Below are positions 24,001 through 27,000 of a stretch of 39,698 nt of DNA, piece after piece. The stretch is taken from the IMG/VR virus record IMGVR_UViG_2522572021_000013; one strand, written 5' to 3'. The position numbers were made by a program. Origin of the DNA: a virus. Its lineage: Duplodnaviria; Heunggongvirae; Uroviricota; Caudoviricetes. Position 1 is the first letter of the stretch. The number at the start of each line of letters is the position of its first letter.

Positions 24001-27000
24001 CTCCGCCTTTCCCAGGCGAACCAGCACCTCCGCACACGGCTGTGCGACATCACGGATATCCCCGGCCCGGCCATCATGCGTGCCCTGCAGATATCGGATC
24101 TTTGCCATAACCTGTTACGGGAGGCGCACGCCTCCCGTCCTCCTTATCAGACTCAGCCGCCGGACGCACTGCCGTAGTTCACTCCGGTGATCACCGCCAC
24201 CGCCGCGGTACGGCGACGACGCCAGTTGATCCAGCGCTCCGCACGGATGGCCACACTGCCTGTCTGGAACATGGAAACCAGCTCCACCGGCGACGGTGTG
24301 GTGCTGTCGCCGCCCGGCTCAGACTGCATTTCCAGTGACGCTTCACGGGACATATCCACTGCCACACCGCCGTCATCCGCCAGATAAATATCCGGTGCAT
24401 TCACCAGTACCAGCTGGTCACCCACGTACTGGGAGACAATCACCGGAAGCCCCTGAAAGGTCCCGCCCAGCAGGGTCATGTCCGGATATTCCTTCTGACC
24501 CAGCGCATTTTTACGCATGGACAGCGCCAGGGCATTCGTGCTGGACATCAGCCAGACAGCACCAGTGGGCTGCAGATTTGCCGTCACAAACTGGCCAAAC
24601 GCGGCCTCGGCATCCGCATCCGGGTTACCGGTTGATGCCGTGCCCTTCACATCATGGGTGATGGACGCCGGGGAGACATCTGCCACTGCAGCTTTTTTCG
24701 GGTCCACAAAGTCTGTGTCCAGACGCGCCACCACCGCTTCTGCCAGCGCATTACGGACCAGTGCATCAGCTGCCGGACTGGAAAAGCGGATCAGCTCTTC
24801 CGTCAGTACCGCAATGGCCGACACCTTCGCATGACTGAAGGTGATGGACTCAAAATCAAACTTCGTCAGGGGTCTGGCCTTACCCTCCCCCACCCAGCCG
24901 GCAGCACCACCGGACACCTGGGCATGCTCGCGGATATTGAACGGCACCAGACGAAGTGCAGGGATCCCGCCCTGACCAAATCGCCCGATAATGGTCTGCG
25001 GACGCAGGTAATCAATAAAGTCCTGCGCATATTCCTGATATTCAGACAGGCTGCCTGCCCACTGTGGGTCCGTGGTGGTCCCTGCCCCCACCGCCGATTT
25101 CAGGACATGATGCAGACGGCTGTCATCCGGATACTGACGACGGGCCACTTCCAGGGCTTCAGAGCGGACACCTTTAGCCGCGGCCAGTGATTTGGCAAAG
25201 CGGGCGAAACCAATCCCCTTCTCCAGTTTCTGCTCAACACGGATCACCGGCGCTGAAGCCACCGTGGCCACATTCCCGTTACCGGCCTGTTTCACCGGCT
25301 GTGCCGTGGCGGCCTTACCGGCTTCCAGTTCACGCAGACGCTTCAGGTGCGCATCCACCTGACGGATTTCCGCTGCGGTGTTGTCGTAGTGCTCTTCCTC
25401 TTCCACATCCAGTGTGCGGCCTTCCTCTGCGGCTTTGTTCATGATCTCCTCAAGGGAGGCTGCCAGCGCCGCACGCTTGTTTTCAAAACTTTTAATCTGT
25501 TCACCAGTATTCATTGCTGACTTTTCCTTATGAAAAGAGGTTATTGACTGTGCCGAAGCGCCGGCAGAAGATGCGATTTTCACCACCGGTCTCCGGTTGC
25601 CGGACGCGGCAGAAAACGGGCTGCCGAAAGATTTAATGGTCCGGATGGTGCATTCCGCATTCGCGGGCACGGTGACGGCAGACACCTCCATCAGCTCCCA
25701 GCGCAGAAAATGCAGTCCGCCTCCGTCCAGATAAGTGTATTCATGGGGCCGGAAGCCCACAGAAAGCCCCCTGACCAGCCCGGTCTTAATGGCAGCCCAG
25801 GCCTCATCCAGCCGGGCTGCCATCTGGGAGGGCATCCCCGGCTCCGGCTTCACCAGCATTGCCGTGATTTCCAGCCCTTCCCTGACCCGACGCACCGTAC
25901 ACTGGCCTACAGGGCGGGAATGGTCATGCTGCCAGAGAAACGGGATCGTACTGCCAAACTCCGCCCCCTCCGGCTCCAGGATGTCACCATCCCGATCCGG
26001 AGAAGGCGTTGACGCAATCCCGGTGATCACCCGTTCATCCTCACTGAAGGATTTCACCGTCAGCAGGGAACAGGCCCGTTTAAGAGTCACATCAGCCTCC
26101 TGAAAATAAAAAAACCGCCGCAGCGGTTCATGATGGTTACAGGGTGAGCAGGGTTATATGAAAAAAACCTCATACGCTTTCTTTTTCGGTTCCGGATTCA
26201 GGGACATCAGGGACACCGCATTGAAGAGCGCCATCAGCGGGTCAATTTTTCCCCGTCCGCTGGCCTGTTTGGTGATAAGAATGGCGTTACCTTTAGGCTC
26301 CACCCGGGCATTGCCAACGCACCAGGCCATCAGTGGCTGACCACCATGCACCAGCACTCCCTCAGCCAGTTTGCGCTCGGTGGTTTTGATGGCCCCGCCC
26401 AGCTTCCAGCCCTGGCTTATCCCCACCACACTCTCATCGGGGATCCCGGCTTCCGCCAGTGAATCCAGAATCTGCCCCACACCTGACGGGTCAATACCGA
26501 TATGATCCAGTAACTCAGCCTCATGAATACGACGCACATACTCCGCCACTTCCGCCGTGTCATCCCCGACCCGACGGACAATCGTCATGTCTCCACAGGC
26601 CACAAAATCCTGAAACCGGGATGCCTCACTCTTCCGTCTGACCACCGCGGTTTCATGCACCCAGGCATGGCCCCAGCCCAGCCATTCGCGGGTTTCCCTG
26701 TCACGGCCAGTCACGTACATTCCCAGCAGATCATCCAGGCCCCCGCCGTCAATCCCCACCGTCACCACATCAGCGCGCTGCAGGATATCGTCCAGGCTGA
26801 CGCGCCTGCCCTGCTGCTCCCAGAAATCCGCCCCTGCCCAGCGGTCAGAACGCAGGGCAAGACCAATTTCCACATTGGCGTGTTTTGACATGAAACCGCG
26901 GAAAGTCTCTTCCCCGGCTTCCCGGGCTTTACGATACTCCCGGTACAGAAAGGCCTCATCCACTGAATAGCCGAGATTCGGATTGACCATGGCGAGGTTT

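Follow-up and report, generated by a model that had tools for sequence, protein, structure and literature searches.

The 39,698-nucleotide (nt) viral sequence IMGVR_UViG_2522572021_000013, called the window in what follows, is a lambdoid prophage of enterohaemorrhagic E. coli. Between its prohead protease-major capsid fusion gene and its portal gene lies a small conserved gene, and the gap preceding that gene holds a GC-rich RNA hairpin with a Shine-Dalgarno (SD) sequence on one side and the start codon on the other. On grounds of sequence and of analogy, we think with modest confidence that the small gene has a split (‘accommodated’) ribosome-binding site (RBS) whose middle, looped out, is the hairpin; the arrangement is a rare one, known from phage T4 genes 38 and 25. 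The hairpin folds, it is conserved among relatives, and SD, hairpin, spacer and AUG stand in a constant geometry; that this geometry is what allows the small gene to be translated, we infer. Folding of the 22-nt hairpin would reduce the SD-AUG spacing from 30 nt, which is non-functional, to ~8 nt, and a 30S subunit bound at the SD would then place the AUG in its P site. In other genera folding would cut the spacing from ~25 nt to 6-7 nt.

The structural genes around the hairpin are all on the minus strand. Since the capsid gene is among them, the relevant RNA is the reverse complement of the sequence given by the earlier note, a reading of this DNA that had pointed out a GC-rich near-palindrome at 24118-24137, downstream of the capsid gene. 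In the transcript the capsid stop UGA (24155-24153) is followed by gucugau (7 nt), AAGGAGG (24145-24139), the hairpin (24138-24117), AACAGGUU and the AUG (24108), giving a 44-nt intergenic gap between the capsid stop and the small gene. The plus-strand sequence at 24118-24137 is cgggaggcgcacgcctcccg, exactly as described earlier. The anatomy of the palindrome needs amending, however: its central two bases cannot pair, and A24117 and T24138 pair too, adding an outer A-U pair to the stem. The perfect inverted repeat is 24117-24138, with 9 bp and a 4-nt loop. Its 5′ arm occupies 24138-24130, the loop (GUGC) 24129-24126 and the 3′ arm 24125-24117; eight of the nine pairs are G-C, and the 5′ base lies 15 nt past the capsid UGA. 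The earlier note had recognized the hairpin but overlooked what flanks it, the AAGGAGG and the AUG at 24108.

Folded in isolation the hairpin has a free energy of -17.8 kcal/mol. With 51 nt of context the value is -19.7 kcal/mol (z = -3.0; 1 of 200 shuffles as good); with 141 nt the total minimum free energy (MFE) is ordinary (z = +0.49), and the hairpin is still present in both the MFE and the centroid structures. All nine pairs have probabilities of 0.83-1.0 in contexts of 151, 301 and 601 nt. The folding check proposed earlier therefore finds a stable structure in transcript context, and the stable GC hairpin described right after the capsid stop stands. The CCUCC in the 3′ arm could in principle pair with the SD instead, but the main hairpin is predicted with a pair probability of ~1.0. 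An RNase III processing site, for which we took ~20 bp or more of double-stranded RNA as the criterion, was ruled out, the stem having just 9 bp. A mini open reading frame (ORF) starting at the loop GUG (GUG-CGC-CUC-CCG-UAA, in frame, 9 nt past the SD) was also considered and set aside, as the GUG is missing in most variants, whose loops are GCGA, GAGA or GAAA. A GUG in the stem or loop of some E. coli variants (L006, L051) starts a 7-codon mini-ORF whose UGA overlaps the AUG (CUGAUGG); this mini-ORF is not conserved among variants.

The AAGGAGG adjoins the 5′ base of the hairpin, and its GGAGG (24143-24139) lies at a linear distance of 30 nt from A24108. Its duplex with the 16S 3′ end is calculated at -12.2 kcal/mol versus -3.2 for the spacer, in which an AGG stands merely 2 nt before the AUG and no properly placed SD is found. 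The AAGGAGG is predicted to be single-stranded (unpaired probability 0.5-0.9). Across 63 distinct intergenic sequences from relatives, the SD is at the 5′ side of the stem, with a mean anti-SD energy of -10.2 kcal/mol (weakest, -6.3), and anti-SD complementarity in the spacer is essentially nil (mean, +1.1; best, -3.9). Of 57 aligned relatives, 56 have the core GGAG at this position, and bases on its 5′ side are free to vary. The spacer measures 5-11 nt (mode, 7; 6-8 nt in 56 of the 63 sequences). Its sequence is variable (AUAUUGC, AUUUUGC, GUAAUAC, AUUAAC, AACAGGUU, AGUAACUG and others), as are the loop sequence and the distance from capsid stop to SD; the conserved quantity is therefore the geometry of SD, hairpin, short spacer and AUG. 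Distant relatives (Serratia, Rouxiella, PAJU2, SOVA965 and a Rhizobium phage) have the hairpin at least 10-20 nt from the start, with the SD downstream of the hairpin, from which it follows that SD position switches with spacer length.

The small-gene AUG is at 24108-24106, and an in-frame UAA two codons upstream makes an earlier start impossible. The product matches phrog_829 (1.6e-38) in an alignment that begins at residue 1, and its homologues begin with MAKIRYLQ.THD in 15 genera or lineages, including Salmonella, Citrobacter, Enterobacter, Kluyvera, Buttiauxella, Atlantibacter, Kosakonia, Phytobacter and Pantoea. The dN/dS ratio (nonsynonymous to synonymous substitution) of the small gene is 0.1-0.4, and tblastn matches the small protein in Salmonella phage FSL SP-016. 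By these comparisons the ORF downstream of the hairpin is a real gene starting at AUG 24108. No match to the small protein was found in Pfam, NCBIfam or PDB sequences, and several phage records omit the gene or assign it another start. In the E. coli lineage the 73-aa ORF overlaps the portal gene by 55 nt in a different frame (23887-23941). In other genera the small ORF is 51-58 aa, and in Salmonella FSL SP-016 it ends at the portal start; the C-terminal extension in E. coli may be a recent read-through.

Relatives for comparison were picked by similarity to the capsid C-terminus, and the intergenic region played no part in their selection. A homology search with the small protein itself gave only E. 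coli, at 74% identity or more, which is why diversity was drawn through the capsid. The samples comprised, from IMG/VR, 80 E. coli-type loci and 80 like those of Salmonella FSL SP-016; 44 loci from genomes taken one per Genome Taxonomy Database (GTDB) species; and annotated phages. A scan of viral contigs for the pattern GGAGGGCGGGG..CCCCGCC returned many members of the family along with unrelated longer terminator hairpins; as the pattern fixes stem and SD, this set served for a qualitative look at loop and spacer variation and was excluded from covariation and counts. One locus (L297; IMG/VR 3300032159_000067) has a ~15-nt insertion in the loop, GGCGGGG-GAUCCCUCAGGGGGGAAA-CCCCGCC; outer stem and SD are retained there, with a spacer of 7 nt. 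GNRA-type tetraloops (GAAA, GCGA, GAGA) are frequent among relatives.

The E. coli loci contain 13 intergenic variants, each 44 nt long, whose differences cluster in the loop and spacer. In the stem, G-C pairs have turned into G-U, there is a single G.G mismatch, and the closing pair is A-U, G-C or G-U. MAFFT aligns the E. coli hairpin with those of other Enterobacteriaceae as GGAGG-[G/A]CGGG...CCCG[C/U], which makes them homologous; by this alignment the E. coli stem is lengthened on its inside. A 24-sequence alignment has 91.3% of its cells paired (slid controls, 47-57%) and three pairs changed on both sides, and none of 500 shuffles reaches the covariation score. A 57-sequence alignment of Enterobacteriaceae prophages gives 89.8% against 46-60%, again with three double-sided pairs and none of 500 shuffles. 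These three pairs in the larger set are GC 52, AU 4, GU 1; GC 44, AU 13; and GC 37, UA 2, GU 1. In the adjacent small gene synonymous sites are saturated between genera (proportion of synonymous differences ~0.7-0.8), yet the stem is kept. On this comparative evidence the hairpin is under selection for pairing. The G-U wobbles among the variants preserve pairing in the sense RNA only, which supports the earlier assignment of the element to RNA and rules out that selection acts on a DNA palindrome or on an antisense RNA.

Four features of a split RBS that can be read from sequence are found at this locus. The SD of such a site should lie more than ~15 nt from the start in linear form (here 30 nt); the hairpin should lie wholly between SD and start and leave a residual 5-11 nt (here 8 nt); there should be no alternative, properly spaced SD, and none is seen; and the intervening structure should be phylogenetically conserved, as this one is.

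Several points weigh against a split RBS. Only ~3-4 independent double-sided events are seen, most stem pairs being invariant G-C. The hairpin of 9 bp and 22 nt is somewhat bigger than the 16-17-nt inserts implied by the T4 spacings. Ribosomes that stop at the end of the capsid gene, 44 nt upstream, could translate the small ORF by re-initiation. Lastly, the distant relatives with a downstream SD still carry a post-capsid hairpin; their layout shows that the ancestral role of the hairpin had to do with the 3′ end of the capsid cistron rather than with an RBS, and possibly a role of that kind continues.

The foremost alternative, which the earlier note favoured and which we regard as possible though distinctly less probable than a split RBS, builds on such a role. 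As an mRNA 3′ stabilizer or processing barrier, the hairpin would block 3′-to-5′ exonucleases after endonucleolytic cleavage downstream. The capsid segment would then outlive the portal segment, raising capsid over portal; this is plausible, and it can be combined with a split RBS. A T=7 head of the HK97 type has hundreds of capsid subunits and only 12 portal subunits, and capsid demand is accordingly far above that for portal. Intercistronic hairpins such as the repetitive extragenic palindromic (REP) element in malEFG act in this way, as mRNA stabilizers. The window has what this explanation calls for, a stable hairpin 3′ of the high-demand capsid gene and before the portal gene, and a strong post-capsid GC hairpin is present in ~45 of 48 relatives whatever gene follows. 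The frequent GNRA-type tetraloops also suggest selection for sheer stability. Stabilization alone, however, leaves unexplained why the SD is always at the stem and why an AUG with no SD of its own is held 5-11 nt away. Our literature searches turned up no work on hairpins after capsid genes or on the stability of mRNA from phage late operons.

An element that does both jobs is unlikely. Such a dynamic, bifunctional hairpin would be a decay barrier or residual attenuator setting the capsid:portal mRNA ratio and at the same time an obligatory RBS spacer. Synthesis of the small protein would then be confined to transcripts whose hairpin is folded, and to the times when it is folded, and would be coupled to ribosome traffic and termination on the capsid cistron. 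If true, evolution would here have taken a terminator into an RBS, and the outcome would be conserved in many Enterobacteriaceae prophages, Shiga-toxin phages among them.

That the hairpin is at present a leaky intrinsic (Rho-independent) terminator or attenuator, reducing transcription of portal and later genes, seems improbable to us, although some features of the family and of the operon speak for it. In other genera homologous hairpins are followed by AUUUUGC, AUUUUU, ACUUUUUCU or UUUUUUUCU; distant relatives have canonical post-capsid terminators, such as that of the Rhizobium phage with GAGCGGGUUUUUU; and terminator-like hairpins with U-runs occur in the same operon of the window at 26129-26112 and 8370-8349. 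The window, however, has the GC-rich stem-loop of a Rho-independent terminator without the U-tract 3′ of the stem. The tail in the window and in all E. coli variants is AACAGGUU or AGUAACUG, with one or two U among eight nt and none beside the stem, and our terminator scan did not call the site. The earlier remark that no U-run follows thus holds for the window (2 U in the 8 nt past the stem). Its corollary, that the hairpin is not a terminator, fits the E. coli lineage but does not extend to the whole family, as homologous hairpins elsewhere in Enterobacteriaceae often keep a U-rich tail. Nor is the U-content of the tail conserved across the family, with two U or fewer in 26 of 63 sequences. 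Lambdoid late operons are read by a Q-modified, terminator-resistant RNA polymerase, and the near-identical prophage PPompW_14040 has Q (with three tRNAs); termination at the hairpin is therefore unlikely to matter. In the window, neither a Q antiterminator gene nor tRNA genes were seen upstream of the lysis genes, where the region is broken by insertion sequence (IS) elements; the late regulatory region of this prophage looks disrupted.

The ancestry of the hairpin is another matter. A strong GC hairpin (-14 to -32 kcal/mol) stands 0-36 nt from the capsid stop in the ~45 of 48 capsid-family relatives mentioned above, which span alpha-, beta- and gamma-proteobacteria. The hairpin of the window probably descends from a terminator-like hairpin that, family-wide, marks where the capsid cistron ends. 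Within the clade of Enterobacteriaceae, the SD of the next gene would have come to lie upstream of the hairpin, and the E. coli lineage would then have lost the U-rich tail and lengthened the stem. The likeliest history is one in which a post-capsid terminator was absorbed into the RBS of the next gene.

A translational throttle or insulator is very improbable. Here the hairpin would keep the SD too far from the AUG, or stop ribosomes that terminate on the capsid gene from sliding to the AUG, and would thus keep the small protein scarce. The capsid stop is indeed just 44 nt upstream, and within the E. coli stem a further SD-like motif, GGGAGG, pairs with an anti-SD-like CCUCCC. That embedded GGGAGG is limited to the E. 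coli lineage, however, other genera having GGCGGGG, and a throttle needs neither a conserved free SD at the stem base nor a fixed 6-8-nt spacer.

A DNA-level palindrome serving as a protein-binding site, or an inverted repeat arisen by chance, can hardly be credited: the repeat is a perfect 9+9 on DNA, but the G-U wobbles are A-C mismatches on the other strand that break DNA symmetry, the loop sequence is free to vary, and chance would supply about one perfect hairpin of 9 bp or more per window, yet this one is conserved across genera saturated at synonymous sites. The window holds seven such hairpins versus 1.0 +/- 0.85 in 40 dinucleotide shuffles, and with ~1 expected per shuffled window, chance placement of one in the 44-nt gap is unlikely; the question of chance is decided by conservation in relatives. 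The hairpin is not repeated elsewhere in the window. No Rfam family was matched; the best hit was sroE at 17.8 bits versus a gathering threshold of 51 (E = 0.35), and the matches obtained at permissive E-values were noise only.

A split RBS at this locus has its closest counterparts in T4 genes 38 and 25, where hairpins shrink the SD-AUG spacing from 22 to 5 nt and from 27 to 11 nt, destabilizing mutations reduce translation, and the structure is conserved in close relatives and missing in distant ones (PMC3014915; PMC7297116). We rely for these systems on the accounts in those two articles of the work of Gold (1988), Nivinskas et al. (1999) and Malys & Nivinskas (2009). Both there and here the SD is too distant linearly, an intervening stable hairpin restores (or, in our case, would restore) a 5-11-nt spacing, and the site is an intercistronic junction of phage structural genes. 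In both, too, the hairpin is conserved in a close clade and absent or rearranged in distant relatives. The phages are unrelated, however, ours being HK97-type lambdoid prophages of Enterobacteriaceae; the present hairpin is GC-rich, terminator-like and apparently inherited from a post-capsid terminator; and it measures 18-22 nt versus the 16-17 nt implied for T4.

Other systems share parts of the arrangement. Phage T7 has a Rho-independent terminator, T-phi, after its major capsid gene 10. As there, a GC-rich stem-loop lies directly 3′ of the most highly expressed structural gene, and relatives of the window locus have hairpin plus U-tract; the copy in the window differs in having no U-tract, a start codon 8 nt later and the SD of that gene before it. 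The REP element of malE-malF and the hairpins of the puf operon are intercistronic mRNA stabilizers. They resemble the present case in placing a stable hairpin between a high-demand upstream and a low-demand downstream cistron of one operon, but the window hairpin is single-copy and has no sequence relation to REP. In thrS, a hairpin that is a protein operator parts an upstream single-stranded enhancer from a normally spaced SD (Sacerdot et al. 1998, as described in PMC7297116). On that account the thrS hairpin likewise interrupts the ribosome-binding region, whereas the window hairpin parts the SD itself from the AUG. Variation in the loop argues against a sequence-specific protein ligand for the window hairpin.

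In the literature we found, T4 genes 38 and 25 are the only natural hairpin-bridged split RBSs. If confirmed, the present case would be an independent and widely conserved further example, occurring in HK97-type lambdoid prophages not only of E. coli (Stx1, Stx2 and Stx2c phages among them) but also of Salmonella, Citrobacter, Enterobacter, Kluyvera, Pantoea and others. It would also suggest how a split RBS can originate, namely by a shift of the SD of the next gene to the 5′ side of a terminator hairpin already present after the capsid gene. Software for gene calling or RBS prediction that demands contiguous SD-AUG spacing will mis-score or miss the small gene. The hairpin is a defined target for asking how phages set capsid-to-portal expression ratios.

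Features of the locus are collected in Table 1. Over the 600 bp surrounding the hairpin, identity is 100% with ‘Enterobacteria phage PPompW’ and 91-97% with many Stx1a-, Stx2a- and Stx2c-converting phages. The capsid fusion ORF matches phrog_617 (major head protein, 2.8e-258), Pfam Phage_capsid and Peptidase_S78, and TIGR01554; the fusion gene carries the same annotation in the 100% identical PPompW prophage.

Table 1. Structural genes and RNA elements around the post-capsid hairpin, in order of transcription
Feature	Coordinates	Strand	Remarks
Terminase small subunit	28375-27812	minus	
Terminase large subunit	27815-26154	minus	
Prohead protease-major capsid fusion gene, 645 aa	24153..26090	minus	stop UGA 24155-24153
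Shine-Dalgarno AAGGAGG	24139..24145	minus	
RNA hairpin ACGGGAGGC-GUGC-GCCUCCCGU	24117..24138	minus	folding, covariation, wobble pairs
Unstructured spacer AACAGGUU, 8 nt, hairpin to start codon	24109..24116	minus	
Small conserved gene, 73 aa	23887..24108	minus	phrog_829
Portal gene, HK97 type; low-copy structural gene 3′ of the hairpin	22577..23941	minus	phrog_2271, PF04860, TIGR01537

Further hairpins occur in the same operon. At 26112-26129 (minus) a terminator-like hairpin, GAACCGC-UGCG-GCGGUUU followed by UUUUAUUUUC, sits between the stop of the terminase large-subunit gene (26154) and the capsid SD AGGAGG with its GUG start (26090). Its order is the ordinary one of hairpin, U-run, SD and start, in contrast to that of the post-capsid hairpin. 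Two more intergenic GC hairpins lie in the tail-gene region, at 8349-8370 and 12593-12616 (minus). The sequences there are AGCCCGCC-GGUUCA-GGCGGGCU followed by UUUUUUG, with an AUG 11 nt further, and ACAGGCACCC-UCCG-GGGUGCCUGU followed by UGUUUUCUGG. Both are terminator-like, and the late operon thus appears to be punctuated by hairpins.

Transposase ORFs are found at 34916-35836 (+) and 37835-39048 (+), within the region 33166-39048. The first of them interrupts a phrog_143 ORF, leaving pieces at 36465-35815 and 34365-33166.

The portal is encoded in two ORFs of 454 aa (23941-22577) and 407 aa (22580-21357) that overlap at AUGA. Stx2a_WGPS6 has one additional base at a G-run (GTTCAGGGGGG versus GTT-GAGGGGG; window 22577-22600, minus; L002 ~3300), and its portal is annotated as a single protein of 859 aa, a length that phrog_2271 shares. 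The split could reflect a frameshift at the slippery G-run or a pseudogenizing indel. Within the 407-aa ORF for the portal C-terminal part, at 21823-22364, there are 3.3 tandem copies of a 162-bp unit (96% matches), which encode recurring DGRDYDPEVLQQAVNDAVANIPVPADGKSITPDDVRPMLEQMVKEAVSHIPVPR segments.

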